Assembly (NCBI GenBank): GCA_020638555.1 | Contig: JACKII010000003.1 | Coordinates: 112,610 to 176,609 of the forward strand | Direction of reading: 5' to 3' | Length of the DNA: 64,000 bases | From: Alphaproteobacteria bacterium | Lineage (GTDB): Bacteria > Pseudomonadota > Alphaproteobacteria > Bin95 | Shown: in pieces, positions 8,379-29,593 of the stretch | Layout of the letters: each line of letters begins with the position of its first letter | Numbering within the stretch: position 1 is the stretch's first letter | Made by a program: the position numbers and the translations under genes | Notes under the pieces: generated by a model | What the model was told of the DNA's origin: nothing | The model's input: only the letters and a program-made list of their open reading frames with translations | Database searches by the model: none

Positions 8379-8870
8379 TCAGCGCGGTACGCGCTGCATG
8401 AAGTAGCGGCGGAGATTGATGCCCTCGGGAAGCGGCAGGCTTTCCCAACCTTCGCCGTCGATCGGCTGGTCGGAGACGATGACGGCGCCCGGCGCCGTCA
8501 GCGTCGCCAGCGTCTCCGCCAGGAACTGCGCCATGGCGGCGATACTGGCGGCACCGCCCTGGCCGAAATCGGCGTGCACCAGCGCCGCCTTCGCGCCGAT
8601 GCGCGCGGCCGCGGTCGGCAGCGTCTCGCGGAAATCGCCGAGGAACAGGTCATCGTCCGGCGGGATGCAGGAGGGGTGGGCCTGCACCAGCCGCTCGAAC
8701 ACGAAAATGCGCCGGTCGGGCAGGATCTCGCGCAGATGGTCGTAGGTGCGTCCGTTGCCAAGGCCGAGTTCCAGCACCGGGCCGGGAACATCCGCAATCA
8801 GCGCCGCGGCCCGGTCGAGACAGGCGCGCTGGGCTTGCATGCGGCGGATAAAGCTGTCGAGCCGGCTCAT
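8379..8870 (-). CDS. putative class I SAM-dependent methyltransferase (TylF/CmcI-like)
   Basis: 163 aa; glycine-rich VLELGLGNGRTYDHL motif resembling SAM-binding motif I; start overlaps upstream gene stop (ATGA). Confidence 0.5.
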   Translation of the reverse strand: MSRLDSFIRRMQAQRACLDRAAALIADVPGPVLELGLGNGRTYDHLREILPDRRIFVFERLVQAHPSCIPPDDDLFLGDFRETLPTAAARIGAKAALVHADFGQGGAASIAAMAQFLAETLATLTAPGAVIVSDQPIDGEGWESLPLPEGINLRRYFMQRVPR

Positions 8871-9313
8871 GCCGCCCGCGCTTCGCGCAGGTCGGCGGTG
8901 GTTTTCTCCAGCCGGCGGGCCAGTTCTTTCATGATTTCAATTCCCATTTCCGGCACTTCGGTCACCAGCCGGAAAAAATGCTCCTTGGAAATGCGCAGCG
9001 TGGTGAGATCGCTTGCGGCCCGCACGGTCGCGGTGCGCGGGATGTCGATCAGGATCGCGATTTCACCGATAATGTCATTGCAGCCGAGTGTCGCCACCTT
9101 CAGCTCGCCACTGGCGGAGGCGACGAACACGTCGGCCTCGCCCGCCAATACGATATAGGCGGAATCCCCCGGGTCCCCCTGCCGGACAATGTCCTCGCCG
9201 GCCGGGAACACCATGCGCTCACTGGTGAAGGCCAGCAGTTTCAGCCGGCGCGGCTCGATCCGCTGGAACAGCGGGAGACGGCGCAACGCATCGACTTCCT
9301 GGTTCAGCGACAT
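8867..9313 (-). CDS. stand-alone cyclic nucleotide-binding (CAP-effector) domain protein
   Basis: 148 aa; cNMP-binding beta-barrel motifs (FPAGEDIVRQGDPGDSAYIVLAGEADVF, GEIAIL, RTATVRA); no HTH domain. Confidence 0.7.
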   Translation of the reverse strand: MSLNQEVDALRRLPLFQRIEPRRLKLLAFTSERMVFPAGEDIVRQGDPGDSAYIVLAGEADVFVASASGELKVATLGCNDIIGEIAILIDIPRTATVRAASDLTTLRISKEHFFRLVTEVPEMGIEIMKELARRLEKTTADLREARAA

Positions 9314-9333: not shown

Positions 9334-11958
9334 CTATTCCGCGGCCTTGGTGATTGGAGCGGCCCCCGCCGATTCGGCTTCGACCCGGCCGCCCTCGATG
9401 GTGAAGATGCGTTGCATGGCCTGTGCCTGGTCCGGCTGATCCAGCACGGCGACCACGCCGCGCGGCGCCTGGGCTTCCAGGATACTGGCAAACACCTTGC
9501 CGCGCATCGACTCGTCGAACACGGACAGCGCCTGGTTGACCACCAGCAGGTCCGGTTGCTTGGCCAGCGCGCGGGCAAAGGCGAGTTTCTGCCGCTGCAC
9601 GGCCGACAGCCGGCCGCCGGCGACGCCGACATGATATTCGAGCCCGACATCCAGGATCGAATCGTGCAGGCCGGACTCGTTCAAGACCTCACCGACCAGA
9701 GCCCGCACCTTCGCCGCTCCCTGAGGTTGTCCATAAGCGACCTTTCCGAACAGAATATTGTCCTGAATCGAAGCCGCGCTATTGTACCGTTCCGGATCGA
9801 AGAAGGCCACGGCCCCTTTCAGATCTTCCGGCAGGTGTTCGGCGAAGGAGTGGCGGGCTTCCAGAAGGCGTTCTTCCAGCGAGTCGTCGAGCAGGTCCAG
9901 ACGGTGGCGCGCGGGGATCAGGCGGAACGGCAGCGACATCAGCCGGCTGCGGTCTTCCTCGCCCAACCCGGCAAGGCCCCGGCCACCGCGGTCGATCCGT
10001 CCCAGCAGCGCCTGAAATTCCGGCAGGTCCTCTGCGGCGATGAAGCTGAACTGCTCCATCAATTCGTGTCCCGGTTCGATGTCGGCGAACAGTTCCACCA
10101 TGGTTTCCGCCACCTTGCGGCCGATCCGGACGACATCGTCGGTCAATCCGACCCGGTCCAGCGTCTCTCGCACATAGGGATGTTCGCCCAGATTCTCCAG
10201 GTCGAACGTGGTTCCGACCGGGGTGCCGAACAGCAGGTTTTCGGCAAAGGTGGCGTTCCGGTTGTACCGCTCGGGATCGAAGGGTTCGATCAGGGCGCCG
10301 GCCCCGCTGGCGGCCACCCGTTCGCGGAAGGCGGCCCGCACCTCGAGCAGGGATTCCACCAGATGCGGATGGGCGTCACCGTCGATGCGGCCGCGCAGGC
10401 CGAACTCGTAAATGTCGTCGGCCAGCAGGGCGTCCTTGACCGACTGGCGCAGGCGCCGTTGCAGGTCGTCGGCACTGCCGTCGAGGCCGGCGCCTTCGTA
10501 ATGGATCCAGTCGCCGCTCAGATTGAAGATGCTGTTGCCGGCCGTCTCCGCCTCGGCGATCCAGGCGCGGCGGCTCTCGTCGACCTCCGCCGGCGGGTGC
10601 GTGCGCAGCGCCAGCAGCAGGTTTTCGCGGATGCTGGCGGAAAACAGATAGGGCTGGGCCGAAACATAGCCGATGCGCCGGCCGAGCCGCGCCTCCGGTA
10701 TCGTTCCCAGGTCGTCGTCGCCATACTGGATGCGGCCCGATGTCGGCGCGATCAGACGCACCAGCAGCGGCGCGATCTCCTCCTTGCCGCCGCCGCTGGG
10801 GCCGACAAAGGCGACCCGCTGGTCCAGGCCGAAGGCCAGATTGACATTGTGCAGGTAGACCGTGCCGTCGTCGTCGGCGAGCCCGACATGGCGCAGGGCG
10901 ATCTGCGCCTCGCCCGGAAACGGCGACGGCGGAATGTCGTCCGTGGCATGCAGATCCGGCTCCATCATGCCCGGTGGGTCGAACTGCTGGATGACGGTAT
11001 CGTATTTGATCCGGGCGTCGGCCAGCTGCTGGTAATAGGCCAGCAATTCCTTCCAGGGCGCGTTCATGTCCTTGTGGGCACTGATGACGGCGATCAGCGC
11101 ACCGACGCTCAGATTGCCCGTGATCGCCAGATACCCGCCCAGCGAATAGAATAGGAACGGCGTGAATTGCGCCAAGAAATTGTTGAAAAATTTAATAAAA
11201 AATTTTCTCCGGAAAATTTCGTACCGGATTTCATAGATAATTCCCAGGCGATGGGAAAATCGCGACAACTGATACTGGCTGCTGTCATTGGTGTGAATTT
11301 CGGATATGCCGCTGATGCTTTCCCCCAACTGGTCCGAGAGGATGCGGATGTTCTGCACCCGCTGCTTGGCCAGCTGGTTGACCTTTTTCTGGAGCCTGGG
11401 CACCAGCACGCCCTGGATGGGGAACAGCGCCACCGCCGCCAGACCGAGCCAAGGGTCCTGCATCAGGATGAACACCAGCAGGGTCACCAGGATGCCGCCC
11501 TGGTAGAGCGGCAGCGCCAGCGCATCGCCGAAAAAGCCGCCCAGCGGCTCCACCTCCTGCGTCACCATGGGGATCAACTCGCCCTGGCTGACCCGGCGGA
11601 AGTGCGGCAGGGGAAAGCGCAGAATGCGCTCGTACAGGATATAGCGCAGCCGGCGCAGCATGCGCTCGCCCAACCGCCCTTTCATCACATTGAGAACGTA
11701 TTTGAAGCCGCCATTGATGAGGACAAGCAGGAGAAACAGGCCGCACAAAACGAACAGATACGGCAAGTGCTCGAACTCGTAGCCATAGAATTCCTTTGGA
11801 AAATCGGCGGGCCGCCCCTGAATGGCCCCGTTGACGATGCGCTTCGGCAACTCCGCCTGAAAGTAAATGAACGGAAATGCGGCAAATGTCAGCACGATCA
11901 AAATGATCTGCTGGCGCTTACTGTAGGCAAAGATATAGCCGAACAGGGTTTGCTTCAT
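9334..11958 (-). CDS. ABC transporter, fused permease/ATP-binding protein with degenerate, internally repeated ATP-binding domain
   Basis: ATG at 11958 with AAGAG RBS (TTG at 11976 alternative); N-terminal 6-TM type-I exporter domain. The ATP-binding domain has an atypical Walker A (GPSGGGKE) and a Q-loop (VSAQ). The post-Q-loop segment is present three times (SIRENLLL / FDPERYNRNATFAENLLFG / FDPERYNSAASIQDNILFG). The signature is degenerate (LSAVQ), Walker B reads LLVVNQ, and the H-loop is not recognisable. Confidence 0.8.
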   Translation of the reverse strand: MKQTLFGYIFAYSKRQQIILIVLTFAAFPFIYFQAELPKRIVNGAIQGRPADFPKEFYGYEFEHLPYLFVLCGLFLLLVLINGGFKYVLNVMKGRLGERMLRRLRYILYERILRFPLPHFRRVSQGELIPMVTQEVEPLGGFFGDALALPLYQGGILVTLLVFILMQDPWLGLAAVALFPIQGVLVPRLQKKVNQLAKQRVQNIRILSDQLGESISGISEIHTNDSSQYQLSRFSHRLGIIYEIRYEIFRRKFFIKFFNNFLAQFTPFLFYSLGGYLAITGNLSVGALIAVISAHKDMNAPWKELLAYYQQLADARIKYDTVIQQFDPPGMMEPDLHATDDIPPSPFPGEAQIALRHVGLADDDGTVYLHNVNLAFGLDQRVAFVGPSGGGKEEIAPLLVRLIAPTSGRIQYGDDDLGTIPEARLGRRIGYVSAQPYLFSASIRENLLLALRTHPPAEVDESRRAWIAEAETAGNSIFNLSGDWIHYEGAGLDGSADDLQRRLRQSVKDALLADDIYEFGLRGRIDGDAHPHLVESLLEVRAAFRERVAASGAGALIEPFDPERYNRNATFAENLLFGTPVGTTFDLENLGEHPYVRETLDRVGLTDDVVRIGRKVAETMVELFADIEPGHELMEQFSFIAAEDLPEFQALLGRIDRGGRGLAGLGEEDRSRLMSLPFRLIPARHRLDLLDDSLEERLLEARHSFAEHLPEDLKGAVAFFDPERYNSAASIQDNILFGKVAYGQPQGAAKVRALVGEVLNESGLHDSILDVGLEYHVGVAGGRLSAVQRQKLAFARALAKQPDLLVVNQALSVFDESMRGKVFASILEAQAPRGVVAVLDQPDQAQAMQRIFTIEGGRVEAESAGAAPITKAAE

Positions 11959-12166
11959 CGGTAACTCTTGGCACAAAGGCGCGGCCGGGAGCCAATCTCG
12001 AACTTACCCGAAATCCCCGCGACTAACAATCACTTGGCCGAACTCCGCCTTTAGCCCATGTTTAAGATGTGATGCGTGCGTGGTAGCGTGCCGCTCGGTA
12101 CGGAGTGAAGGGCTCGGAAGATTGCCCCCAAAGGGTCCGGCCGAAAGTTGCAAATGGGAGCGGTCA
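11959..12166. promoter_or_regulatory. divergent intergenic control region between ABC exporter operon and glycosyltransferase operon
   Basis: 208-bp gap between divergently oriented first genes; GGGAG RBS 8 nt before ATG 12167. Confidence 0.3.
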
Positions 12167-13402
12167 ATGCGAGAAGCGCTGACTGGTGTGTCGGGAAGCA
12201 GGCGGATCCTGATCTACAGCCATGACAGTTTCGGCCTCGGCCATCTGCGCCGTTGCCGCGAGATCGCCAATGCACTGGTGGAGACCTACGATCATCTGTC
12301 GGTGCTGATCCTTTCGGGCTCGCCGATCATCGGCAGTTTCGACTTCCGTCCGCGGGTCGATTTCGTGCGCATTCCGGGCATGATCAAGCTGTCGAACGGC
12401 GAGTACACCTCGCACGCGCTCGACATCGCCCCGGAAAAGACGCTGGAATTGCGGGCGGCGGTGATCGGCGAGACCGCGCGGATTTTCGATCCCGACGTGT
12501 TCCTGGTCGACAAGGAACCGCTGGGCCTGCGCGGCGAGGTGCGCGCCACCCTGGAAATGCTGCGCGAACACGGCACCCGCATCGTGCTGGGCCTGCGCGA
12601 CGTGATGGACGATCCGGACGCGCTGGAGCCGGAATGGAAGCGCAAAAAGGCCCATTCCGCGCTGCGCGATCTCTATGACGACATCTGGGTTTATGGCCTG
12701 CCGCAAATCTGCGACCCGCTGGAAGGGGTCGACCTGCCGGATTCCGTGCGGCGCAAAATGGTCTATACCGGCTATCTGCGCCGGCGGGTGAGCCCGCGGC
12801 CCGATGCGGCGGTGAACCTGGTCGGCACCGAGCCCTATATCCTGGTGACGCCCGGCGGCGGCGGCGACGGCGATGCGCTGGTGGACTGGGTGGTCCGCGC
12901 TTACGAGCAGGACCCCGACCAGCCCTATCGCGCCCTGGTCGTGTTCGGCCCGTTCATGCAGGGCGAGCAGCAACAGGCCTTCCGCCAGCGCATCGAGGCG
13001 CTGGCCAATGTCGAGGCGATCACCTTCTACAACCAGATGGAAACGCTGATCGCCGGCGCCACTGGCGTCATCGCCATGGGCGGCTACAACACGTTCTGCG
13101 AGATCCTGTCGTTCGACAAGCCGGCCATCATCGTCCCCCGCACCCGGCCCCGCATGGAACAGTCGATCCGCGCCGCGCGGGCGCAGGAGCTGGGGCTGGT
13201 GCGCATGCTCGACCCGGACGACGGCCGCCCGGCGCGCGTCATGGCGACGGCGATCCGGCAATTGCCGCAGCAGGGCCGGCCGTCGGACGTGGTGGTGCCG
13301 GGCCTGCTGGACGGACTGGACAACGTCAATCGCCTGGTCGGTCGCGCATTGGACCAGGCGCGCCTGCCGCCGCTGCGCTTTGCCGAGGCGGGCGGTGACT
13401 GA
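12167..13402 (+). CDS. GT-B fold glycosyltransferase (PseG/MurG-like N-terminus)
   Basis: ATG 12167 within track ORF 12080..13402; N-terminal ILIYSHDSFGLGHLRR motif typical of PseG/MurG-like GT-B enzymes; C-terminal GGYNT motif. Confidence 0.75.
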   Translation: MREALTGVSGSRRILIYSHDSFGLGHLRRCREIANALVETYDHLSVLILSGSPIIGSFDFRPRVDFVRIPGMIKLSNGEYTSHALDIAPEKTLELRAAVIGETARIFDPDVFLVDKEPLGLRGEVRATLEMLREHGTRIVLGLRDVMDDPDALEPEWKRKKAHSALRDLYDDIWVYGLPQICDPLEGVDLPDSVRRKMVYTGYLRRRVSPRPDAAVNLVGTEPYILVTPGGGGDGDALVDWVVRAYEQDPDQPYRALVVFGPFMQGEQQQAFRQRIEALANVEAITFYNQMETLIAGATGVIAMGGYNTFCEILSFDKPAIIVPRTRPRMEQSIRAARAQELGLVRMLDPDDGRPARVMATAIRQLPQQGRPSDVVVPGLLDGLDNVNRLVGRALDQARLPPLRFAEAGGD

Positions 13403-14678
13403 CCGCAACGGTTCCGCGCCCGGGCGGACGGCGGTTGCGGTCGTTCTGAAAGGCTATCCACGGCTCTCCGAGACCTTCATCGCCCAGGAAATCCTGGCGT
13501 TGCAGCAGCGCGGGCTCTACCAGCACATCGTCTCGCTGCGCCATCCGACCGACCGGAAGCGTCACCCGATGCACGACGCGATCCGGGCGCCGGTGCTCTA
13601 TCTGCCGGAATACCTGTATCAGGAGCCGCTCCGGGTGCTGCGGGCCTGGTGGCGGGTGCGGCGGCGGCCGGCCTATCGGGCGGTGCGGCGGCAATGGCTC
13701 CGCGACTGGCGGCGCGACCGCACGCCGAACCGCGGCCGACGGTTCGGCCAGGCGCTGGTGCTGGCTGCTGAACTTCCGGCGGACATCGGCCATCTGCACG
13801 CGCATTTCCTGCACACCCCGGCCTCGGTGACGCGCTATGCGGCGGCGCTCAGCGGCCTCTCGTGGAGCGTCTCCGCCCATGCCAAGGACATCTGGACCTC
13901 GCCCGAATGGGAAAAGCGCGAGAAGCTGGCGGATTGCGCCTGGGCGGTGACCTGCACCGCCTTCGGCGCCGCGCACCTCCAGGCGCTGGCACCCGCGCCG
14001 GAACGGGTAGAGTTGCTGTATCACGGCCTGGACCTCGGCCGATTTCCGCCGCCGCTGGCCGAGCGCGGGGCACGTGACGGCAGCGATCCCGGCGCGCCGG
14101 CGCGGCTGCTCTCGGTCGGCCGGGCCGTGCCGAAAAAGGGCTATGACGACCTGCTCGACGCCCTCGCCCGCTTGCCGGCGGACCTGGCCTGGCATTTGAC
14201 CCATATCGGCGGCGGCAAGCTTGCCAGGCCCCTGCAACAGCGGGCCGAGCGCCTGGGCATCGCCCACCGCATCACCTGGCAGGGTTCGCAGGCGCAGGAG
14301 GCGGTGGTCGCGGCCTATCGCGAGGCGGACCTGTTCGTGCTCGCCAGCAAGGTGGCGGATGACGGCGACCGCGACGGCCTGCCGAACGTGCTGATGGAGG
14401 CGCAGAGCCAGGGCCTGGCCTGCCTGGCAACGACGGCGGCGGGCATCCCGGAACTGATCCGCGACGGCGAGACCGGGCGTTTGGTGCCGCCGGGCGATCC
14501 GGCCGCGCTGGCCGACGCCCTGGCGGCACTGATCCGGGCGCCGCAGGAGCGCGCGCGCCTCGGCCTGGCCGGCGCGGCGGCGTTGCGCCAGCGGTTCTCG
14601 TGCGAGACCGGCGTGGACCGACTGGCGCGGCGCTTCGGCCTCGCCGCCGGTGCGCCGTCAGCGCGCGCCGCGGAATAA
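13395..14678 (+). CDS. glycosyltransferase family 4
   Basis: GTG 13395 overlaps previous stop (GTGA); GT4 C-terminal domain with E-x7-E region (PNVLMEAQSQGLACLATTAAGIPE). Confidence 0.8.
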   Translation: MTDRNGSAPGRTAVAVVLKGYPRLSETFIAQEILALQQRGLYQHIVSLRHPTDRKRHPMHDAIRAPVLYLPEYLYQEPLRVLRAWWRVRRRPAYRAVRRQWLRDWRRDRTPNRGRRFGQALVLAAELPADIGHLHAHFLHTPASVTRYAAALSGLSWSVSAHAKDIWTSPEWEKREKLADCAWAVTCTAFGAAHLQALAPAPERVELLYHGLDLGRFPPPLAERGARDGSDPGAPARLLSVGRAVPKKGYDDLLDALARLPADLAWHLTHIGGGKLARPLQQRAERLGIAHRITWQGSQAQEAVVAAYREADLFVLASKVADDGDRDGLPNVLMEAQSQGLACLATTAAGIPELIRDGETGRLVPPGDPAALADALAALIRAPQERARLGLAGAAALRQRFSCETGVDRLARRFGLAAGAPSARAAE

Positions 14679-14693
14679 GGGCGTCCTCCCCGC

Positions 14694-15821
14694 ATGCGCG
14701 TTGCCTTTTATGCGCCGCTGAAGCCGCCGGACCACCCCACCCCGTCCGGCGACCGCCGCATCGCCCGGCTGCTGCTGGAGGCGTTGCGGCTCGCCGGCCA
14801 TGACGTGCATCTGGCATCCCGGCTGCGGTCGCGCGATGCGGTCGGCGACCGGCTGCGGCAGGCGCGGCTGGCCGACCTCGGCCAGCGCGTGGCAGCGCGG
14901 CTGCTGCGGCGGTATGCGGGCGCGGACGCCCGGCCCGACGCGTGGATCACCTATCACCTCTATTACAAGGCACCGGACTGGATCGGCCCGCACGTGGCGG
15001 CGGCGCTGGGCATCCCCTATATCGCGATCGAGGCCAGCCATGCGCCGAAACGCGCCGGCGGCCCCTGGGATCTGAGCCATCGCGCCGTCGCGCATGCGGT
15101 GCGCCAGGCGGCCCGCATCGTCTGCCTGAACCCGAACGACCGCGCCTGCCTGGAGCCGCTCGCCCCCGGCCGCATCGCCCTGTTGCCACCGTTTCTCGAC
15201 CCGACCCCGTACGCGCCGGCGGCAGGCGCCCGCGCGGCCCTGGCGGCGCGATACGGCCTGCCGATGGGGGAGCCCTGGCTGCTGGCCGTGGGCATGATGC
15301 GGCCCGGCGACAAGCTCGCCTCCTACCGCCAGCTGGCCGCGGCCCTGACGCGCCTCACCGACCGCCCCTGGCGCCTGCTGGTGGCGGGCGACGGCCCGGC
15401 GGCGGCGGCGGTGCACGCCGCCTTCGCACCGCTGGCGGACCGTGTGCACTGGCTCGGCGCGCTGGACGAGGCGGCCCTCGCCCGCGTCTATCCGGCCGCC
15501 GACCTGCTGGTCTGGCCCGCGGTGCGCGAGGCGTTCGGCATGGCCTTGCTGGAAGCGCAGGCCGGCGGGCTGCCCGTGGTGGCCGGCCGCACCGACGGCG
15601 TGCCCGCGGTGGTCGCGGCCGACACGACCGGCCTGCTGCCGCCGCCGGACGACATCGCCGCCTTCGCCGCCGCCGTCGCCACCCTGCTCGACGACCCCGC
15701 CCGGCGTGAGGCGATGGGACAGGCTGCGCGGGCGCGGGTTTTGCGGCATCATTCGCTCCAAACCGCAGCCATCGCACTCGACCGCATTCTGACGGAGGCC
15801 CTATGCCACTCCTCAGCCTGA
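14694..15821 (+). CDS. glycosyltransferase family 4 (MshA-like N-terminus)
   Basis: 375 aa; N-terminus MRVAFYAPLKPPDHPTPSGDRRIA resembles MshA-type GT4 enzymes; C-terminal GT4 motif (ALLEAQAGGLPVVAGRTDGVPAVV). Confidence 0.8.
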   Translation: MRVAFYAPLKPPDHPTPSGDRRIARLLLEALRLAGHDVHLASRLRSRDAVGDRLRQARLADLGQRVAARLLRRYAGADARPDAWITYHLYYKAPDWIGPHVAAALGIPYIAIEASHAPKRAGGPWDLSHRAVAHAVRQAARIVCLNPNDRACLEPLAPGRIALLPPFLDPTPYAPAAGARAALAARYGLPMGEPWLLAVGMMRPGDKLASYRQLAAALTRLTDRPWRLLVAGDGPAAAAVHAAFAPLADRVHWLGALDEAALARVYPAADLLVWPAVREAFGMALLEAQAGGLPVVAGRTDGVPAVVAADTTGLLPPPDDIAAFAAAVATLLDDPARREAMGQAARARVLRHHSLQTAAIALDRILTEALCHSSA

Positions 15822-16399
15822 TCCGGCACGCGCCCACCACCTGGAACGAGGCCGGACGCATCCAGGGCCAGACCGACACGCCGCTGAGCGAGGCCGGGCG
15901 CGCAGCCCTGCTGACCTGGGAGCCGCCGGCGCCGCTGCTGGCCGCCGACTGGTGGACCAGCCCCCTGCAACGCTGCCGCGACACCGCCCGGCACCTGGCC
16001 GGCCGCACCGTCGCCGTGGACGAGCGCTTGCAGGAAACGAACTGGGGCGACTGGCAGGGCAAGCGCCTCACCGACCTGCGCGAGAGCCTGGGCGAGGAAA
16101 TGGCCGAAATGGAAGGCCGCGGCTGGGATTTCCAGCCGCCGGGCGGCGAAAGCCCGCGCCAGGTCTCGGCGCGGTTTCAGGACTTTGTGCGCGCGGTGGC
16201 GGAGCGCGACCGGCCGACCGTCGCCGTCACCCACCGGGGCGTGATCCGGGTCGCGATGGCGCTGGCGACCGGCTGGGATTTCCTCGGCAAGTCGCCGGTG
16301 AAACTGCGCCGCCCGGCCGCCCACGTGTTCTGGGTGACGGCCGAGGGCACGCTGGAATTGCGCGACGCCAATGTGCCGCTGGGCGAGCCGGTGCCATGA
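15803..16399 (+). CDS. histidine phosphatase family protein (phosphoglycerate mutase-like)
   Basis: 198 aa; catalytic RHG motif (LIRHAPTTWNEAGRIQGQTD); overlaps upstream gene by 19 nt and downstream start by ATGA. Confidence 0.8.
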   Translation: MPLLSLIRHAPTTWNEAGRIQGQTDTPLSEAGRAALLTWEPPAPLLAADWWTSPLQRCRDTARHLAGRTVAVDERLQETNWGDWQGKRLTDLRESLGEEMAEMEGRGWDFQPPGGESPRQVSARFQDFVRAVAERDRPTVAVTHRGVIRVAMALATGWDFLGKSPVKLRRPAAHVFWVTAEGTLELRDANVPLGEPVP

Positions 16400-17571
16400 G
16401 CGACACCATGGCAGAGCGCGCCGGGGACGCCCCGAAAATCCTGTTCTGGGTCCAGCACCTGCTGGGCATCGGCCATCTGAAGCGCACGGCGACGCTGGCC
16501 CGCGCCCTGGCCCGGTCCGGGTTCGCTGTCACCGTGGTCTCCGGCGGTTTCCCGGTGCCGGGGCTGCGGCTCGACGGTGCCGGGTTCATGCAATTGCCGC
16601 CGGTGCGCGCGGTGGATGTGTATTTCAAGGACCTGCGCACCGAAGGCGACCGGCCCATCGACGACGCCTGGCGCGAGACGCGCCGCACCGCGCTGATGGC
16701 CGCCGCCGAGACGATCCGGCCCGACATCGTGCTGACCGAACTGTTTCCGTTCGGCCGCCGGCAACTGGCGTTCGAACTGGAGCCGTTCCTGACCGAAATG
16801 CGTGCCAGGGGCGTGCTGGTCGCCTGCTCCGTTCGCGATATCCTGGTGGAGCCGCCCAAACCCGAACGCCTGCTGGAAATGCTGGAGCGGACCGAGCGGC
16901 TGTTCGACCTGGTGCTGGTCCACGGCGACCCGGATCTGGTGCCGTTCGAAGAGACCTTTCCGCACAAGGAGCGCATCGGCGACCGCCTCGCCTATACCGG
17001 CTATGTGGTGGAAGAGCCGATCGCGGCGGCGGGCCGGGATGGCGAGGGCGAGGTCATCGTCTCCGCCGGCGGCGGTGCCGTCAGCGAACCGCTGCTGCGC
17101 GCGGCCCTGGCCGCGAAGCCGCTCAGCCGGGCGCGCGACCTGCCCTGGCGGCTGCTCTGCGGCGCCGGGATCGGCGAGGCGGCGGTGCGGGACCTGCAAC
17201 GGCTGGCCGACGCGGACACGGTGGTCGAACCGGCCCGGCCGGACTTTCCCGGCCTGCTCGCCCGCGGGCGGCTGTCTGTGAGCCAGGCCGGCTACAACAC
17301 CATCATGGACGTGCTGGCGGCGGGCATTCCCGGCGTCGTCGTCCCCTATGCGGGCGGGCTGGAGAGCGAGCAGACGCTGCGGGCGCGGCGGCTGGCGGAG
17401 CGCGGCGTGCTGCATGTGGTGAACGAGGCGGACCTGACGCCGGAGCGCCTGGCCGCCGGCATCGACCGGGCGCTGGCGGCCCCGCCCGGCTCGCTCGACC
17501 GGCTGGCCACCGACGGGTCTGCCGAGACCGTGCGCCTGTTGCGGGCGGCGCTGGCCCGGCGGCGCGCGTGA
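16396..17571 (+). CDS. GT-B fold glycosyltransferase, paralog of 12167..13402
   Basis: ATG 16396 (MSDTMAERAG) within track ORF 15952..17571; N-terminal ILFWVQHLLGIGHLKR and C-terminal AGYNT motifs parallel the first GT. Confidence 0.75.
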   Translation: MSDTMAERAGDAPKILFWVQHLLGIGHLKRTATLARALARSGFAVTVVSGGFPVPGLRLDGAGFMQLPPVRAVDVYFKDLRTEGDRPIDDAWRETRRTALMAAAETIRPDIVLTELFPFGRRQLAFELEPFLTEMRARGVLVACSVRDILVEPPKPERLLEMLERTERLFDLVLVHGDPDLVPFEETFPHKERIGDRLAYTGYVVEEPIAAAGRDGEGEVIVSAGGGAVSEPLLRAALAAKPLSRARDLPWRLLCGAGIGEAAVRDLQRLADADTVVEPARPDFPGLLARGRLSVSQAGYNTIMDVLAAGIPGVVVPYAGGLESEQTLRARRLAERGVLHVVNEADLTPERLAAGIDRALAAPPGSLDRLATDGSAETVRLLRAALARRRA

Positions 17572-18335
17572 GCGCGTTCGCGCCGCTGCTGGCCGAACTC
17601 GACGCCTGGAGCGAGGCCGGGCGGGTGGCGCAATTCTGGTGGCGCGACGACGACGCCGCCGACGCCGCTCCGGCCCTGGCAACCATGCTGGCGCTGCGGC
17701 GCGCGGCGGAGGTGCCGTTGGCGCTGGCGGCGATCCCGCTGGCGGCGACGGACGCGCTGGCGGACGCTGTGGCGGCGGAGTCGGGCGTTCAGGTCTGGCA
17801 GCACGGCATCCGCCACGCCAACCGCGCCGCACCGCCGGCGAAAAAGCAGGAACTGGTGAGCGCGGCGCCGGATATCCGCGCCGGCCTGGAGGAAGGCCGG
17901 CGGCAACTGGCGCGGCGGTTCGGCGCTCGGGCGCGGCCGGTGCTGGTGCCGCCCTGGAACCGCATCGCGCCGGACCTGCTGCCGCTGCTGCCCGGCCTGG
18001 GGTTTTGCGGCCTTTCCACCTTCAAGCCGCGCTCGAAGCCCTTTGCCGCGCCGGGGCTCGGCCGGATCAACACGCATGTGGACCTACTGGATTGGCGGGC
18101 GGGGGCAAGTTTCCGCGGCGCCGAGGCCTGCGTCCGCGACCTGACCGCCCATCTGTCCGCCAAGCGCAACGGCCGGGCCGACGCCGACGAACCGACGGGC
18201 GTGCTCGGCCATCATCGGGTGATGCAGGCCGACGCCTGGGCCTTTCTTGGCGCGCTGTTCGCCGCTACAACAGAAAAATCGTGCTGCGTCTGGACGCTGC
18301 CCGCCTTCCCTGACCCGGCGTCGGAGCCCGAATGA
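17568..18335 (+). CDS. polysaccharide deacetylase-like protein (divergent CE4)
   Basis: GTG 17568 overlapping prior stop (GTGA); CE4-like motifs WWRDDDA (Asp pair), QHGIRH (His-x3-His), VPPWNRI. Confidence 0.65.
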   Translation: MSAFAPLLAELDAWSEAGRVAQFWWRDDDAADAAPALATMLALRRAAEVPLALAAIPLAATDALADAVAAESGVQVWQHGIRHANRAAPPAKKQELVSAAPDIRAGLEEGRRQLARRFGARARPVLVPPWNRIAPDLLPLLPGLGFCGLSTFKPRSKPFAAPGLGRINTHVDLLDWRAGASFRGAEACVRDLTAHLSAKRNGRADADEPTGVLGHHRVMQADAWAFLGALFAATTEKSCCVWTLPAFPDPASEPE

Positions 18336-18844
18336 CCACCGCAGAGGCCCGTTTTCACTATCCGCTCGGCAATCTGGTGCCAGACTATCTGCGCGCCGGC
18401 GCCGGCTTCGGCCTGTCCATGGTGCCGCTGCCGGCGGCTTTGGGCGCGCATCCCCTGGTGCTGTTGATCGTCCTGGGGTTTGCCGGCCTGTTCGGCTCGT
18501 TCGGCGTGACGACCTTCATGCGCCAGAAATCGACGGTCATCGCCTCCGACGCGGGAATCCGGATCGAAGGCTTACGCAGCAAGGCGATTCGCTGGGAGGA
18601 CGTGCAGGGGGTCGACCTGCGCTATTTTTCCACCCGCAAGGAAAAAGACAAGGGCTGGCTGCAACTGAAAGTGATCGGACCAAACGGAACCGTTAAGGTG
18701 GACTCGAACCTGGACGATTTCGACGGCCTGCTGCGTTGGGTGGTGACCGCTATCACTCGACACGATTTGTCGGTTACGCTTATTGGACGAGAAAACTTTG
18801 CATCCAAGGGCCAACCATTGCCCACCAGGGAGGATACCGCGTGA
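18332..18844 (+). CDS. hypothetical small membrane protein (2 predicted TM helices plus PH-like soluble domain)
   Basis: ATG 18332 overlapping prior stop (ATGA); hydrophobic stretches GFGLSMVPLPAALGAHPLVLLIVLGFAGLFGSF; stop overlaps next GTG. Confidence 0.5.
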   Translation: MTTAEARFHYPLGNLVPDYLRAGAGFGLSMVPLPAALGAHPLVLLIVLGFAGLFGSFGVTTFMRQKSTVIASDAGIRIEGLRSKAIRWEDVQGVDLRYFSTRKEKDKGWLQLKVIGPNGTVKVDSNLDDFDGLLRWVVTAITRHDLSVTLIGRENFASKGQPLPTREDTA

Positions 18845-20706
18845 CGCCGCTGCTTGAGGTCGAGAACCTCTGCATCGACTTCAGCCTGCCGAGCGGGCCG
18901 ATGCGGGCGGTCGATGGGCTGAGCTTTCGCGTGCCGGCGGGCCGGACGGTCGCCCTGGTCGGCGAGAGCGGTTCGGGCAAATCGGTCACCGCCCAGGCGA
19001 TCATGGGCATCCTGCCAAGGGTGGCCAAAATCACCGGGGGCGCCATCCGCTTTCGCGATCCCGCGGCCAATGGCGCCGTGGTCGACATCGCCCAACTGGC
19101 GCCGGACGGCGGCGCCTTCCGCAATCTGCGCGGCGGGCGCATCGCCATCATTTTCCAGGAGCCGATGACATCGCTCTCGCCGGTGCACACCATCGGCAAC
19201 CAGATCGGCGAGGCGCTGGAACTCCACCGCGGCGTCGGCAAGACAGAGGCGCGCGCCGAAACCATCGAGATGCTGGACCTGGTCGGCTTCCCCGATCCGG
19301 AGCGCACCATCGACAGCTATCCGTTCGAACTCTCCGGCGGGCTGCGCCAGCGGGCGATGATCGCCATGGCGCTGGTCTGCCGCCCGGCGCTGCTGATCGC
19401 CGACGAGCCGACCACGGCGCTGGACGTGACGATCCAGGCGCAAATCCTCAAGCTTCTGAAGGATTTGCAGGCCCGTTTTCAGATGGCCGTGCTGATCATC
19501 ACCCACGACCTGGGCGTGGTCGCCAATGTCGCCGACGAGGTGGTGGTGCTCTATCACGGTCGGCTGATGGAATCCGGTGCGGTCGAGGATATTTTCCGCG
19601 ATCCGGGCCACCCCTACCTGAAAGCGCTGCTGCACGCGGTGCCACGCTTTCACATGGAAGTGGGCGAGCGGCTGGTGCCGCTGCGCGAGGTGGAAGCCGC
19701 CAGCGGCACGCTGCTGACGCCGCGCCCGCCCCTGGAAGGCCACGACCCGATTCTGACGGTCGCGGGGCTGACCAAATCCTTCGGCCAGCGCAAGCGCGGC
19801 CTGTTCGCGGGCAGCCATGCCGGCGGGCGGACACTGGCAGTGCGCGACGTCTCGTTCGCCATCGCTCCCGGCGAGTGCCTGGGTCTGGTCGGCGAGAGTG
19901 GCTGCGGCAAGTCCACGACCTCGAAAATCATCATGCAGGCGCTGGCCCCGGACAGCGGCAGCGTCACGCTGCGCACCGAGAACGGACCAGTCGACGTGTT
20001 GCATGCCGAAGGGGCGCAACTGATGCAGTTGCGCCGCCGGATGCAGTACATTTTCCAGGACCCGTTCAGCGCCCTGAACCCGCGCATGACCGTGTTCGAC
20101 ATCGTCAGCGAGCCGCTGGTGATCCATGGCATCGGCACGGCGGCGGAGCGGCGCGCCTTCGTCATCGAACTGATGCAGCGCGTCGGCCTGGACCCGCGCT
20201 ATCTGAACCGCTACCCGCACAGCTTTTCCGGCGGCCAGCGCCAGCGCATCGGCATCGCGCGTGCCCTGGCGCTGCGGCCGCAAGTGCTGATCTGCGACGA
20301 GCCCGTCTCGGCGCTCGACGTGTCGGTGCAGGCGCAGATCCTGAACCTGCTGAAGGATTTGCAGCGGGAGTTGGGGCTGACCTACCTGTTCATTTCCCAC
20401 AATCTGGCGGTGGTGGACTATATGGCGGACCGGATCGCGGTGATGTGCGCCGGGCGGCTGGTGGAACTGGCGCCGCGCGCCGCACTGTTCCGGGGCCCGC
20501 GCCATCCCTACACCCAGGCGCTGGTGAGCGCGGTGCCGGAGCCGAGCCTGGATCATCCGCTGGATTTCCGCCGGGTGATGGACGAACGCGCGTCCGACCC
20601 CGCGGCCTGGCCGCCCCCCTATGCCGACGCCGACGGCGCCGCGCGGCTGGTGGAGGTGGAGCCGGGCCACTATGTGCGCCAGCGCGCCGAAGCGGCGGCG
20701 GCGTGA
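18841..20706 (+). CDS. ABC transporter ATP-binding protein with two ATP-binding domains (YejF/DppDF-like)
   Basis: GTG 18841 ([14 protein letters not shown]) within track ORF 18736..20706; two Walker A boxes ([16 protein letters not shown]), two LSGG signatures. Confidence 0.85.
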
Positions 20707-20720
20707 GGGGCGGACCGACC

Positions 20721-22604
20721 ATGCGCATTCTGGCATTGCTGTTGCTTTGGCTGTCGCTGAGTGCGGCCAACTACCTAGAAACGCCGTATTTCGCCGACAA
20801 GGTGAAGGCCGGCGACCTGCCGCCGGTGGCGGACCGCCTGCCCGAGACACCCGATGTCGAGCCCTTCGCCGACGCCTTTGCCGAGCCGGGCCGGGAGGGC
20901 GGCTCGATCAACATCCTAATGGCCAGCGCCAAGGACGTGCGCCAGATGGTGGTGTACGGCTATGCCCGGCTGGTCGGCTACAATCACCGGCTGGAACTGG
21001 AGCCGGACATTCTGGAGCGCTACACCGTCGAGGACGGGCGGATTTTCACGCTCTATCTGCGCAAGGGCCACAAATGGTCCGACGGCAAGCCCTTCACCTC
21101 CGACGATTTCCGCTATTGGTGGGAGGATATGGCGAACAATCCGGAATTGTCGCCCTCCGGCCCGCCGATCGAGATGCTGGTGGATGGCGAACCGCCGGTG
21201 GTGGAATATCCGGACGACACCACGGTGCGCTACACATGGCCGAAGCCGAACCCCACCTTCCTGCCGGCGCTGGCCGGCGCGCGGCCGCTCTATATCTATG
21301 CGCCCAAGCACTACCTGAAAAAATACCATCCGCGCTATGCCGACCCGGCCAAGCTGGAAGAGCGAGTGAAGAAGTCGAAGCGGCGCAACTGGGCCTCGCT
21401 GCACAACCGCAAGGACAATGCCTACAAGAACGACAATCCGGACCTGCCGACGCTGGAGCCCTGGCGCAACACCACCAAGGCGCCGGCCGAACGCTTCGTC
21501 TTCGAGCGCAACCCGTTCTATCACCGGGTCGATCCGCAAGGCCGGCAACTGCCTTATATCGACCAGGTGATCATGGGCATCGCCTCGTCCGGCCTGATCC
21601 CGGCCAAGGCCGGCAGCGGCGAAAGCGACCTGCAGGCCCGCTATCTGCGCTTCGACAATATCTCGTTCCTGAAGCAGAACGAGGACAACCACAAATTTCA
21701 CACGCTGCTGTGGCGCACCGGCAAGGGCGCGGAACTGGCGCTTTATCCGAACCTCAACATCGAGGACCCGGTCTGGCGCGCCCTGTTCCGGGACGTGCGC
21801 TTCCGGCGGGCGTTGTCGCTGGCGGTGAACCGGCACGAGATCAACCAGGTGATCTTTTACGGCCGCGCCGTGAAAGCCGGCCCCGCGAACACCGTCCTGC
21901 CGGCAAGTCCGTTGTACGACACGATGCGGGATACCCGCTGGACCCAGTTCGACCTGAAGCGGGCGAATGCGCTGCTGGACGAAATCGGCCTGAAGCGAGG
22001 CCCGGGCGGCATCCGGCGCCTGCCGGACGGACGGCCGCTGGAAATCATCGTCGAAACCGCGGGCGAGAGCACCGAGCAGGTGGATGCCTTGCAACTGGTG
22101 CACGATTCCTGGCTGGACGCGGGCATCAAGATTTTCACCAAACCGCTGCAACGCGAGGTGCTGCGGAACCGGATCTTTGCGGGCCAGACGCAGATGGCGA
22201 TCTGGTTCGGCCTGGAAAACGGCCTCGCCACCGCCGAAATGTCGCCCGCCGAACTGGCGCCGACCACGCAGCAGCAATTGCAGTGGCCGCGCTGGGGCCA
22301 ATACTACGAGACCAAGGGCCAATCCGGCGCGCCCATCGACATGCCGGAGCCGCAACTCCTGTTCGACCTCTACCGGGATTGGCGCGAGGCTCGGACCGAC
22401 GACGCCCGCCGCGCCATCTGGCGCGATATGCTGGACATCTGGACCGACCAGGTGTTCACGATCGGGCTGGCCGCAGGCGCCGAACAGCCGGTGGTCGTAT
22501 CGAACCGCCTGCACAACATTCCCGCCAACGGCTTCTACAACTGGGATCCGGGGGCGCATTTCGGCTGCTACCGGCCGGACCGGTTCTGGCTGACACCGGA
22601 GTGA
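20721..22604 (+). CDS. ABC transporter substrate-binding protein, family 5 (YejA/OppA-like)
   Basis: ATG 20721 (MRILALLLLWLSLSAA signal peptide) within track ORF 19875..22604; about 627 aa periplasmic binding protein architecture. Confidence 0.85.
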   Translation: MRILALLLLWLSLSAANYLETPYFADKVKAGDLPPVADRLPETPDVEPFADAFAEPGREGGSINILMASAKDVRQMVVYGYARLVGYNHRLELEPDILERYTVEDGRIFTLYLRKGHKWSDGKPFTSDDFRYWWEDMANNPELSPSGPPIEMLVDGEPPVVEYPDDTTVRYTWPKPNPTFLPALAGARPLYIYAPKHYLKKYHPRYADPAKLEERVKKSKRRNWASLHNRKDNAYKNDNPDLPTLEPWRNTTKAPAERFVFERNPFYHRVDPQGRQLPYIDQVIMGIASSGLIPAKAGSGESDLQARYLRFDNISFLKQNEDNHKFHTLLWRTGKGAELALYPNLNIEDPVWRALFRDVRFRRALSLAVNRHEINQVIFYGRAVKAGPANTVLPASPLYDTMRDTRWTQFDLKRANALLDEIGLKRGPGGIRRLPDGRPLEIIVETAGESTEQVDALQLVHDSWLDAGIKIFTKPLQREVLRNRIFAGQTQMAIWFGLENGLATAEMSPAELAPTTQQQLQWPRWGQYYETKGQSGAPIDMPEPQLLFDLYRDWREARTDDARRAIWRDMLDIWTDQVFTIGLAAGAEQPVVVSNRLHNIPANGFYNWDPGAHFGCYRPDRFWLTPE

Positions 22605-24845: not shown

Positions 24846-24984
24846 TCACAAACCTTTGTTAACGCGTGCCGGCGCGGTGCAATTGCATCGTGCCGGGTCC
24901 GGGCGTAGGGTCTGCCGCTGGCGCTTATCCCCCTCCTGCGCCGCCCCCACTCAACCCCCGTCGCTTTGACGAAGGAGAGTTTTC

Positions 24985-25467: not shown

Positions 25468-25482
25468 GAGACGGAGGGCGCC

Positions 25483-25926: not shown

Positions 25927-25989
25927 CCCGGCAAACCGGCCGTTAGGGCCGCGCCCCCTGCCGCCCGACTTTGCCGCAACAATCGGTGG

Positions 25990-27302: not shown

Positions 27303-27392
27303 CCATCGCGTCTTATCTTCTTCATACATCCATAATGTCTGGAAGTCCGCATCGAGCGCGGGCCGCTTGGCGTCGCCAACCTGGGATACCTA

Positions 27393-29294
<1,902 letters not shown>

Positions 29295-29593
29295 TCAAGA
29301 CCCTATCGCCGCCCCGGCTCTATCTGGAGCCCCTCGACCTGCTGCCCCGTCCCAGCCGCCCGCACGCCGACAGCGTGCCGGCGCTGGGCGGTGCCGTTTC
29401 GGCACTGAGCATCGGCATCTGGCGGCCGGACACCCCCAAACCGCGCACGGTACTGGCCGCCGGCGAACTGCCCGCGTGGCTCGACACCCTGGACGCGGGC
29501 GAGCGCGAGCAGGCCCGGCGCGTCGTCGACCACTGGCGACGCCCACCGGGGTTTTGCGGCGTGCCGGACGGCCATGATGCACGGCCCTCGCTG

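Follow-up and report, generated by a model that had tools for sequence, protein, structure and literature searches.

The locus of interest, at positions 13395–18335 of a 64,000-nucleotide stretch of alphaproteobacterial DNA (hereafter, the window), encodes glycosyltransferases, a histidine phosphatase and a deacetylase-like protein in series. An earlier note on this DNA read the series as the logic of known small-glycoside pathways—glycosylate a phosphorylated acceptor, dephosphorylate it, then de-N-acetylate—and took mycothiol, bacillithiol and compatible-solute biosynthesis as its models. Do these genes belong to one pathway, and if so, what do they make? The analysis presented below places them in a larger cluster whose probable product is a small glycoside or oligosaccharide containing an amino sugar.

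The flagged genes are part of a 14-gene cluster

The five flagged genes (G2–G6) are real: all are backed by GC3 frame analysis. They form the middle of a larger operon that the earlier note missed, in which they are accompanied by a third extra GT-B glycosyltransferase (G1), a small membrane protein (G7) and an ABC importer (G8–G11). Both of the further GT-B enzymes that had been mentioned are present (G2 and G5), but the third, G1 (12167–13402), lies outside the stretch then considered. Three more genes, in a divergent arm, code for a methyltransferase, a cyclic-nucleotide-binding protein and a protein that resembles ABC exporters but has degenerate ATPase motifs, which brings the cluster to 14 genes:

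8379–8870, minus strand: SAM methyltransferase (Pfam Methyltransf_17, PF12692, 199 bits); last gene of the divergent arm
8867–9313, minus strand: stand-alone cyclic-nucleotide-binding protein, 148 aa (PF00027, 74 bits)
9334–11976, minus strand: ABC880, ABC-exporter-like, 880 aa, with a degenerate, split nucleotide-binding domain; divergent from G1
12167–13402, plus strand: G1, soluble GT-B glycosyltransferase, GT28C/GT1-like (Glyco_tran_28_C, 37.7 bits); first gene of the operon
13395–14678, plus strand: G2, GT4 glycosyltransferase, EpsE/WcaL-like over its full length (Glycos_transf_1, PF00534, 112.8 bits)
14694–15821, plus strand: G3, retaining GT4 glycosyltransferase, core enzyme (PF00534, 95.9 bits)
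15803–16399, plus strand: G4, histidine phosphatase of branch 1, small phosphatase type, accessory (His_Phos_1, PF00300, 137.9 bits)
16396–17571, plus strand: G5, soluble GT-B glycosyltransferase, GT28C/GT1-like (Glyco_tran_28_C, 53.5 bits)
17568–18335, plus strand: G6, cytoplasmic CE4/NodB-fold de-N-acetylase-like protein, 255 aa, core enzyme (from its fold model)
18332–18844, plus strand: G7, small membrane protein with an N-terminal hydrophobic hairpin and a PH-like domain (bPH_6, 20.8 bits, weak)
18841–20706, plus strand: G8, fused double ATPase of an Opp/Gsi-type ABC importer (two ABC_tran domains and oligo_HPY)
20721–22604, plus strand: G9, periplasmic family-5 solute-binding protein with a signal peptide (SBP_bac_5, 193.6 bits)
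22666–23664, plus strand: G10, ABC importer permease (BPD_transp_1, 106 bits)
23661–24845, plus strand: G11, ABC importer permease, OppC type (OppC_N and BPD_transp_1; Opp4C, 267 bits)

The operon G1–G11 is translationally coupled, with start/stop overlaps of 4–19 nt at G1/G2, G3/G4, G4/G5 and G5/G6, and further overlaps within that range at G6/G7, G7/G8 and G10/G11. No transmembrane segment or signal peptide is predicted for any of G1–G6. An open reading frame at 16371–18335, taken as one gene, is a frame chimera; codon-position GC places G5 in the frame of 15952–17571 and G6 in another. A PADLOC search for anti-phage defence returned generic cyclic-nucleotide-binding-domain matches and one weak ABC match, with no system protein.

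The cluster is conserved in hundreds of proteobacterial species

Synteny was counted in 66 related loci among those fetched from other species, covering Alpha-, Beta- and Gammaproteobacteria. The cluster arrangement is syntenic across these loci, and hence lies far beyond chance: G1 occurs in 64/66, G2 in 61/66, G4 in 54/66, G7 in 43/66 and G8 in 59/66. The divergent arm is represented by ABC880 in 44/66 and by the cyclic-nucleotide-binding protein in 42/66, the latter gene always adjoining the ABC-like gene in the loci examined. The methyltransferase adjoins the cluster in 26/66, a count limited by locus edges. The G6 family alone has 2,303 representatives (E ≤ 1e-10, 50%-identity library) and is found in at least 590 species genomes, including those of the model plant-associated bacteria Azospirillum brasilense, Sinorhizobium meliloti and Rhizobium etli/leguminosarum. 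No paper on the cluster or on the G6 family was found in the literature searched.

G3 is a GT4 enzyme structurally close to glycosyltransferases of small acceptors

G3 carries the Glycos_transf_1 domain, and its AF2 model (pLDDT 95.1) has the GT-B fold. Residues R203, K207, E279 and E287, which include the E-x7-E motif of GT4 enzymes, are invariant, and the donor-binding site is intact. The Foldseek search places MshA (E 4e-21) and GlgM (alpha-maltose-1-phosphate synthase; E 5e-21, TM 0.78–0.81) first among solved structures, followed by BshA and sucrose-phosphate synthase (SPS), both at E ~1e-17; the G3 family profile gives BshA 113 bits, SPS 108 and MshA 99. The likeness to MshA-, BshA- and sucrose-phosphate-type pathways that had been proposed is thereby supported for G3 at the level of fold. 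All four neighbours are GT4 enzymes that use small soluble acceptors, three of which are phosphorylated.

This likeness does not extend to the "MshA-like N-terminus" that the note had claimed for G3. At the sequence level, the HMM alignments to MshA, BshA and SPS all start at residue ~134–157, that is, in the donor-binding domain, and only full-length fold comparison ranks MshA and GlgM first. G3 scores far below the equivalog cut-offs for both MshA (TIGR03449, 81.8 versus 462.5) and BshA (TIGR03999, 80.5 versus 273.7), with alignments that span only residues ~157 to 370. Since MshA is also the best PDB sequence match of G2, an unrelated GT4, the sequence resemblance to MshA is generic.

G6 is a divergent member of the CE4 fold

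G6 has no Pfam or NCBIfam match at E ≤ 0.01, and no PDB sequence match even when the family profile is used; Pfam Polysacc_deac_1, the sequence model of the CE4/NodB family, does not recognise it. Its AF2 model (pLDDT 96.3) nevertheless shows the distorted (beta/alpha) barrel of CE4 enzymes, and the top 25 Foldseek matches in the PDB are all of this fold (3rxz, 5lgc, 2c71, SpPgdA, ArnD and others; TM 0.5–0.6). Across 33 homologues there is little or no variation in the five ordered motifs of the CE4 family, among which are the catalytic Asp and His as well as the Asp-His-His metal triad: D27-D28-D29, H79-x3-H83, P128-P129-W130-N131-R132 (W130 being kept in at least 90%), H170-x-D172-x3-W176 and H215-H216. 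Individual catalytic roles can be assigned putatively to these residues from motif order. The description of a divergent CE4-like deacetylase two genes past the phosphatase, with Asp-Asp, H-x3-H and PPW motifs, was thus correct, and the concern that catalytic residues might be lacking on alignment is answered by the retention of every catalytic motif. G6 is a separate divergent family within the CE4 fold, and has no signal peptide.

G3 and G6 form a minimal pair

On Rhizobiaceae plasmids, a G3 orthologue lies immediately upstream of a G6 homologue. Some 255 Rhizobium/Sinorhizobium plasmids carry the G3–G6 pair alone: 253 plasmid records match G3 (E ≤ 1e-30) and 258 match G6 (E ≤ 1e-5); the two sets are distributed almost identically over taxa, and their coordinates adjoin. 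On R. etli pA the genes share 4 bp, and on S. meliloti pSymB they are adjacent; the rhizobial proteins are 45–46% (G3) and 35–51% (G6) identical to those of the window. Neighbouring genes encode cyclases, an MBL-fold hydrolase, an MscS-like channel and DUF3095; the importer is absent. The persistence of this pair upholds the placing of the GT4 and the CE4-like deacetylase in one pathway. Gene fusions also involve G6. A 642-aa G5–G6 fusion occurs in an isolate genome and a second, independent assembly (GCA_014636935.1 carries the fusion), and one homologue is a fusion of G6 with a methyltransferase.

The phosphatase is the weakest link

G4 is a branch 1 histidine phosphatase, with R8, H9, R57, E78 and H144 invariant in 24 homologues. 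As was noted earlier, its gene overlaps that of G3 (by 19 nt). The best NCBIfam match is the alpha-ribazole phosphatase CobC (TIGR03162), at 106.7 bits versus a cut-off of 162.9, and dPGM models give 16–40 bits against cut-offs of 82–421; likewise, in the PDB the family profile scores solved dPGMs at ~49 bits and small phosphatases at 82–86. The possibility that G4 is CobC or a true phosphoglycerate mutase, which would have undermined the proposed series, thus finds it below both sets of cut-offs and conserved beside the GT4. The family profile is equidistant from phosphatases of unrelated substrates (PspA, PhoE, alpha-ribazole phosphatase and GpgP, the last being the best single-sequence PDB match, at 58 bits), so a phospho-glycoside can be put forward only as a putative substrate.

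G4 is missing from 12/66 loci and from all rhizobial G3–G6 pairs, and the conserved polar residues of the G3 N-domain are identical in loci with and without it; the acceptor, therefore, need not be phosphorylated. Of the GT4–phosphatase–deacetylase series, and of the order of chemistry borrowed from known pathways, the tight coupling of GT4 and deacetylase stands, but the phosphatase step, dispensable in cis, is weakened. Could G4 then be unrelated to the glycosyltransferases, a CobC-type or housekeeping enzyme that simply lies within the operon? Its best match, its absences and a profile that points to no single substrate are consistent with this. We consider it improbable, given that G4 scores under the CobC cut-off, that its reading frame overlaps both neighbours, that it occupies the position between G3 and G5 of the canonical order in 54 loci across classes, and that no cobalamin (cob) genes occur in the 64-kb window.

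The remaining glycosyltransferases, the importer and the divergent arm

G1 matches the MJ1255/VC2487 family (42.9 bits) and is 25% identical to G5, whose best PDB matches are EspG2, MurG and CalG4. G2 scores 156.7 bits against the EpsE model NF041876, under its cut-off of 400. G7, with a hydrophobic stretch at aa 28–63, weakly matches the STM3941 family (22.3 bits). Among the importer components, G8 scores 610 bits against GsiA, below the GsiA cut-off. The closest solved proteins of known ligand to the binding protein G9 are SPH1118, a pectin-oligosaccharide binder (218 bits), and, at 114 bits, a binder of alpha-galactosides, as against at most 50 bits for peptide binders; G9 thus resembles sugar rather than peptide binders (PMC9314435).

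ABC880 consists of an ABC_membrane domain (aa 46–299), half an ABC_tran domain (aa 375–468) and the remaining part of the nucleotide-binding domain (aa 734–866), the latter two separated by an insert of ~290 aa. The ATP-hydrolysis motifs canonical for an MsbA-like type I ABC exporter are degenerate (Walker A GPSGGGKEE, signature LSAVQ, Walker B LLVVNQ), a property common to 37 homologues: none of them keeps the Walker A Ser/Thr, most have Asn or Ser in place of the Walker B Asp, and the H-loop is variable. Active export by ABC880 is therefore doubtful.

A proposed pathway

The reading that we tentatively favour, at slightly less than an even chance, is that G1–G11 is a single operon and that its soluble enzymes, working in the cytoplasm, put together a short oligosaccharide or small glycoside bearing a de-N-acetylated amino sugar. 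Gene structure, folds, intact catalytic residues, synteny, the G3–G6 pairing and the G5–G6 fusion are observed directly; the donor sugar, the acceptor, the sequence of reactions, and what is transported in which direction are inferred, as follows. In the core step, G3 would transfer an N-acetylhexosamine from a nucleotide sugar to a small soluble acceptor; G6, metal-dependent, would then remove the N-acetyl group to leave a free amine. Any phosphate carried by the acceptor would be stripped by G4 where present; in loci that lack G4, a phosphatase from elsewhere in the genome would be needed. The second GT4, G2, and the GT1/GT28-like paralogues G1 and G5 could extend the product, and the methyltransferase possibly modifies it. 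The co-translated ABC system, with its sugar-type binding protein, may take up or recapture the product or its acceptor, and the divergent ABC-exporter-like and cyclic-nucleotide-binding proteins hint at release, or at regulation through cAMP or cGMP.

A bolder version, and a rather doubtful one, is that a hitherto unrecognised, cyclic-nucleotide-linked pathway in at least 590 proteobacterial species makes, releases and re-imports a glycoside or oligosaccharide that contains glucosamine, may be N-methylated and would represent a new class of osmoadaptive or signalling compound, with ABC880, its canonical ATPase motifs lost, as a cyclic-nucleotide-controlled conduit or sensor. Were a new amino-sugar glycoside indeed made, proteobacterial physiology would gain a class of metabolite that might serve in stress response, signalling or interaction with plants; the logic of "glycosylate, dephosphorylate, deacetylate" would then have arisen independently with different enzyme folds.

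Comparison with known systems and alternative explanations

Mycothiol biosynthesis begins with MshA (GT4), MshA2 (phosphatase) and MshB (deacetylase) (PMC4360819), the same order as proposed here—retaining GT4, dephosphorylation, de-N-acetylation—and MshA heads the list of fold matches to G3. The mycothiol phosphatase is unlinked to the other pathway genes in many genomes, like the loci without G4. Bacillithiol biosynthesis pairs BshA (GT4, the best G3-family profile match) with the deacetylase BshB on a small soluble acceptor and, like the rhizobial minimal pair, is phosphatase-free. Despite these likenesses, and although GsiA, which imports glutathione, is the closest match of the importer ATPase G8, a low-molecular-weight thiol pathway of either type in Proteobacteria is very improbable. 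MshB and BshB are LmbE-fold enzymes (PMC4101496), whereas G6 has the CE4 fold; no homologue of LmbE, of a cysteine ligase (MshC/BshC) or of MshD is present among the 14 cluster proteins; and G3 falls far under the MshA and BshA equivalog cut-offs. The cluster further differs from the mycothiol system in its importer and in its three extra glycosyltransferases, which would have no role in such a pathway, and its hosts are Proteobacteria rather than Actinobacteria. It is the lack of a cysteine ligase in the cluster and the CE4-like, non-LmbE deacetylase that lead us to abandon mycothiol and bacillithiol as model pathways.

Two further systems share single steps with the cluster. Glucosylglycerate synthesis (GpgS, GpgP; the latter is M. 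tuberculosis Rv2419c) resembles it in that GpgP, of the histidine phosphatase superfamily, dephosphorylates a glycosyl-phospho-acceptor, as may G4; it differs in having no deacetylase, and GpgP is no closer to the G4 profile than are PspA, PhoE or alpha-ribazole phosphatase. GpgS, moreover, is a GT81 enzyme and not a GT4. SPS and GlgM are GT4s that glycosylate sugar phosphates, SPS being among the top sequence and fold matches of G3 and GlgM giving the best TM-score with it; their pathways involve neither an amino sugar nor a deacetylase, and the partner phosphatase of SPS is HAD-type.

Two explanations of the whole cluster compete with small-glycoside synthesis. One is that the genes make a polysaccharide, either lipid-linked or on the cell surface (EPS, capsule or LPS-like): the GT-B enzymes would act at the membrane on a polyprenyl-phosphate-linked acceptor, G6 would work on a lipid-linked sugar in the manner of ArnD, and the ABC-like protein would be a flippase. 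It would account for the full-length alignment of G2 with the exopolysaccharide GT4 models EpsE and WcaL, the weak likeness of G1 and G5 to MurG, ArnD among the fold matches of G6, and an ABC880 membrane domain like those of MsbA, PglK and ChvA. We nonetheless judge it unlikely: no priming phosphoglycosyl transferase, Wzx/Wzy, Wza or KpsMT is encoded in the window or in the three loci with gene lists, and no genes for polysaccharide polymerisation or export were identified beside the rhizobial G3–G6 pairs. The degenerate ATPase motifs of ABC880, the fusion of the operon to a binding-protein importer and the small-acceptor enzymes that neighbour G3 in structure argue in the same direction. That fusion is itself unusual for a Leloir-type biosynthetic operon, and could point instead to salvage or catabolism: the importer would take in an acetylated oligosaccharide or glycoside from outside, G6 would deacetylate it in the way of chitooligosaccharide deacetylases, the GT-B enzymes would either glycosylate it anew or work backwards, and G4 would have a sugar-phosphate intermediate as its substrate. 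Translational coupling of importer and enzyme genes fits such a scheme, as does the closeness of G9 to oligosaccharide binders; chitin use, too, pairs Dpp-type importers with CE4 deacetylases, and the Vibrio chitin-oligosaccharide binding protein and deacetylase are among the matches. Against this stand four Leloir-type GT-B enzymes (G3, the one examined, having an intact donor-binding site), a cluster devoid of glycoside hydrolase, sugar kinase and isomerase, and the retention of the G3–G6 pair in Rhizobiaceae without any importer. Salvage is thus, in our view, distinctly unlikely.

Synthesis of a small de-N-acetylated glycoside also finds a parallel in the Nod-factor core (NodC, NodB, NodS and NodIJ). 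The cluster differs from this system in having no acyltransferase, and G6 goes unrecognised by the NodB Pfam model; NodC, for its part, is a processive, membrane-bound GT2. In both systems, a cytoplasmic CE4-fold de-N-acetylase (NodB; here, putatively, G6) acts on the product of a glycosyltransferase, and the accompanying genes include one for a methyltransferase and one for a component of ABC-type export.

Organization of the gene cluster

The G+C content of the window is ~68%, which makes raw ORF lists unreliable; the gene calls presented here rest on codon-position GC and start-site inspection. A 654-aa ORF (16371–18335, +) was rejected as a single gene: it is a two-frame chimera in which codon-position GC changes frame near 17570, and the true genes are thus G5 and G6.

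Genes of the cluster and of the divergent flank (window coordinates)
8379–8870, divergent from G1: Methyltransf_17 gene
8867–9313, divergent from G1: cyclic-nucleotide-binding gene
9334–11976, −, divergent from G1: ABC-exporter-like gene (880 aa)
12167–13402, +: G1, Glyco_tran_28_C-type GT-B glycosyltransferase
13395–14678, +: G2, GT4 glycosyltransferase
14694–15821, +: G3, GT4 glycosyltransferase
15803–16399, +: G4, His_Phos_1 (histidine phosphatase)
16396–17571, +: G5, Glyco_tran_28_C-type GT-B glycosyltransferase
17568–18335, +: G6, CE4-like by fold
18332–18844, +: G7, small membrane protein
18841–20706, +: G8, importer ATPase
20721–22604, +: G9, binding protein
22666–23664, +: G10, permease
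23661–24845, +: G11, permease

Most junctions between G1 and G11 are overlaps of 4–19 nt, indicating translational coupling. Family searches bear out the GT4 class of G2 and G3 and the His_Phos_1 assignment of G4; G1 and G5 are paralogues (25% identity). Across the entire window, Rfam detects two tRNAs only, with no riboswitch upstream of G1. PADLOC detects no defence-system signature. Within the window, G+C peaks in the G3–G6 stretch (14001–18000), at 0.74–0.75 versus 0.62–0.67 on both flanks. On the 3' side of the importer (24970–31741, +) lie OmpA-family (Pal-like), unknown 152-aa, tilS, ftsH and phosphoglucosamine-mutase-type genes; the order OmpA, unknown, tilS, ftsH is also found downstream of the cluster in a related locus (L003).

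G6 is a putative divergent CE4-fold enzyme

G6 has no match in Pfam, NCBIfam or PDB sequences, whether searched as a single sequence or as a family profile, and was identified by fold comparison only. Its relatives are plentiful: over 1,600 90%-identity clusters match it, and a 50%-identity library has 2,303 representatives at E ≤ 1e-10. An alignment of 33 homologues reveals sets of invariant or nearly invariant residues—D27-D28-D29, H79-x3-H83, P128-P129-W-N131-R132, H170-x-D172-x3-W176 and H215-H216—whose order is that of the five CE4 motifs. AlphaFold models G6 with high confidence (pLDDT 96.3), and each of the 25 best matches in a PDB fold search has the CE4 fold, at modest TM-scores of 0.5–0.6. 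Together, motif order and fold matches point to a divergent CE4-fold enzyme whose catalytic set looks complete. The Asp-Asp, H-x3-H and PPW motifs that the earlier note had read as those of a CE4-like deacetylase are hence conserved, and the alignment does not depict an enzyme stripped of its catalytic residues. No signal peptide was found on G6.

Conservation of the cluster, and its core

With each species represented by one genome, a scan found at least 590 loci that encode G6 relatives; the best 80 of these include Azospirillum brasilense, Thalassospira, Reyranella, Inquilinus, Rhodoferax and Marinobacterium. Gene presence was counted across the 66 loci in which G3, G5 and G6 all occur, some counts being limited by locus edges.

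Gene presence in the 66 loci
G1: 64
G2: 61
G8, importer ATPase: 59
G4, phosphatase: 54
G10 and G11, permeases: 53–54
ABC-like gene: 44
G9, binding protein: 44
G7: 43
Cyclic-nucleotide-binding gene: 42

A G9-like gene was not detected in seven Reyranella/Enhydrobacter loci (L016, L021, L028, L032, L041, L060, L074), where the permease genes directly follow the ATPase gene.

On Rhizobium/Sinorhizobium plasmids the cluster is represented by just two genes: a G3 orthologue (45–46% identical to G3 over its full length) immediately upstream of a G6 homologue, with an overlap of 4 bp in R. etli. G3-like genes are found in 253 plasmid records and G6-like genes in 258, with near-identical taxon breakdowns and adjacent coordinates, giving a minimal GT4 plus CE4-like pair on ~255 Rhizobiaceae plasmids. 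The two pairs listed below have no phosphatase, other glycosyltransferases or importer; their flanks carry adenylate cyclase genes, an MBL-fold hydrolase, an MscS-like channel and DUF3095.

Minimal pairs and fusions in related loci
L085, 10895–12759: minimal pair, R. etli CIAT 652 pA (RHECIAT_PA0000054/55)
L086, 8679–10543: minimal pair, S. meliloti 1021 pSymB 822,580–824,444
L088, 6001–7929: G5 (GT28C-like)–G6 fusion, 642 aa, isolate genome GCA_014636935.1
L090, 2736–4217: G6 with a C-terminal methyltransferase domain fused, metagenome contig

The 642-aa G5–G6 fusion (P0396) occurs in the isolate genome, which has neither phosphatase nor G7, and in a second, independent assembly; it was accepted as real. 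Another G5–G6 fusion (P0372) lies on a contig at 2x coverage among fragmented neighbouring genes, and so was treated as a possible indel artefact. Gene-presence counts, rhizobial pairs and the accepted fusion together identify the core of the cluster as the GT4 G3 and the CE4-like G6, with G5 closely tied. Among the enzymes, the phosphatase is the least consistently present. In 12 of the 66 loci a histidine phosphatase is absent within 10 kb, and the conserved polar residues of the G3 N-domain are identical with or without the phosphatase gene.

G4 is a predicted small phosphatase

Residues R8, H9, R57, E78 and H144 of G4 are kept in 24 of 24 aligned homologues. No fusions occur among the top 120 G4 homologues. 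The top NCBIfam match, CobC, scores 106.7 and hence falls below its cut-off of 162.9, and all phosphoglycerate-mutase models lie far under their own; G4 is therefore recognized neither as CobC nor as a true mutase, the two identities that the earlier note had set against its proposal. With the single sequence, the best PDB match is the glucosyl-3-phosphoglycerate phosphatase (GpgP) of M. tuberculosis. That top rank is lost with the family profile, under which PspA, PhoE, Thermus alpha-ribazole phosphatase and GpgP each score 82–86 bits (true mutases ~49), and a GpgP-like assignment was rejected. G4 is thus predicted to be a small phosphatase with a sequence that is not diagnostic for its substrate.

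Replacement of G4 by another phosphatase in gammaproteobacterial loci was also considered and rejected: at that position L036 has a gene (10800–11471, −) that is Rossmann-type-methyltransferase-like by motifs, with no Pfam match. This 223-aa ORF lies just 3' of G6 on the opposite strand, and recurs in six beta/gammaproteobacterial loci (L036, L007, L030, L055, L062, L079). A Formyl_trans_N gene upstream of G2 (13899–14642, −) is a one-off, seen in L036 alone.

A proposed glycoside pathway and its alternatives

The earlier note gave G3 an MshA-like N-terminus. At the sequence level this does not hold: alignments to MshA, BshA and sucrose-phosphate synthase begin only at around residue 134–157, within the donor-binding domain, and since MshA is likewise the best PDB sequence match of G2, the likeness is generic. 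It is recovered in the full-length fold (model pLDDT 95.1), for which MshA (E 4e-21) and GlgM (E 5e-21, TM up to 0.81) rank at the top, followed by BshA and sucrose-phosphate synthase (~1e-17) and, behind these, by GT4 enzymes directed at lipids or polymers. The model lends modest support to a small, soluble, possibly phosphorylated acceptor. Residues K10, R21, R45, H88, K92 and K119 of G3 are invariant.

The cluster is best read as coding for cytoplasmic enzymes that jointly assemble a small glycoside or a short oligosaccharide: G3 would add an N-acetylhexosamine onto a soluble acceptor, G6 would take off the acetyl group, G4, where present, would remove an acceptor phosphate, and G1, G2 and G5 would extend the product, which a methyltransferase may modify. 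The sugar-type binding protein suggests that the importer either recaptures the product or supplies the acceptor. The proposed chemistry is that of MshA-MshA2-MshB (PMC4360819) and of BshA-BshB, in partial support of the earlier note. The cluster belongs to neither pathway: their deacetylase has an LmbE fold (PMC4101496), whereas G6 has a CE4 fold; the cluster contains no cysteine ligase; and G3 fails both equivalog tests (MshA and BshA), scoring far under the cut-offs.

Three other explanations are less well supported: the product may be a lipid-linked surface glycan, the operon may serve salvage, or G4 may be a housekeeping phosphatase unrelated to the glycosyltransferases.

The proposed small-glycoside logic is a familiar one carried out by enzymes of different folds, and its association with transport and cyclic-nucleotide functions is unusual. 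Literature searches for the combination of cluster genes, Methyltransf_17/PF12692, glucosaminyl-glycerate, and Clr/cAMP with glycosyltransferase plus deacetylase did not find the cluster, and nothing on it or its families was found in the literature searched. In excerpts of an account of the S. meliloti Clr regulon (PMC5498481), the deacetylase listed (SMb21247) is a different one, in another pSymB polysaccharide cluster, and the G3–G6 pair is not mentioned.

Transport and cyclic-nucleotide context

Together, G8–G11 make up an Opp/Gsi-type importer that depends on a binding protein. That protein, G9, carries a signal peptide. Of the solved proteins whose ligand is known (PMC9314435, PMC7055323), the nearest to G9 are SPH1118, which binds pectin oligosaccharides (218 bits), and a protein that binds alpha-galactosides (114 bits); no peptide binder exceeds 50 bits.

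The 880-aa ABC-like protein has an exporter-type membrane domain and a nucleotide-binding domain split by ~290 residues. Walker A, signature and Walker B are degenerate in this protein and in 37 homologues, and active export is doubtful. The insert contains two extra copies of a 'Q-loop ... ENxxFG' segment (YVSAQPYLFSASIRENLLLA at aa 437, FDPERYNRNATFAENLLFGT at aa 566, FDPERYNSAASIQDNILFGK at aa 726), by sequence an internal triplication. The ABC-like protein is accompanied by a stand-alone cyclic-nucleotide-binding protein. Class III cyclases are encoded in 20 of 84 loci, and adenylate cyclase genes adjoin the R. etli pair. The rhizobial pairs are also neighboured by a gene for an MBL-fold protein whose orthologues are found in 17 of the 84 loci.

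Elsewhere in the window, ORFs between 52000 and 56000 (such as 53939–55120 and 52225–52773) have no Pfam match; this stretch is low in G+C (0.58–0.62) and may be an acquired island. A 585-aa protein (49121–50878, −) contains a domain of the animal haem peroxidase family (PF03098, 155 bits), a family seldom seen in bacteria.
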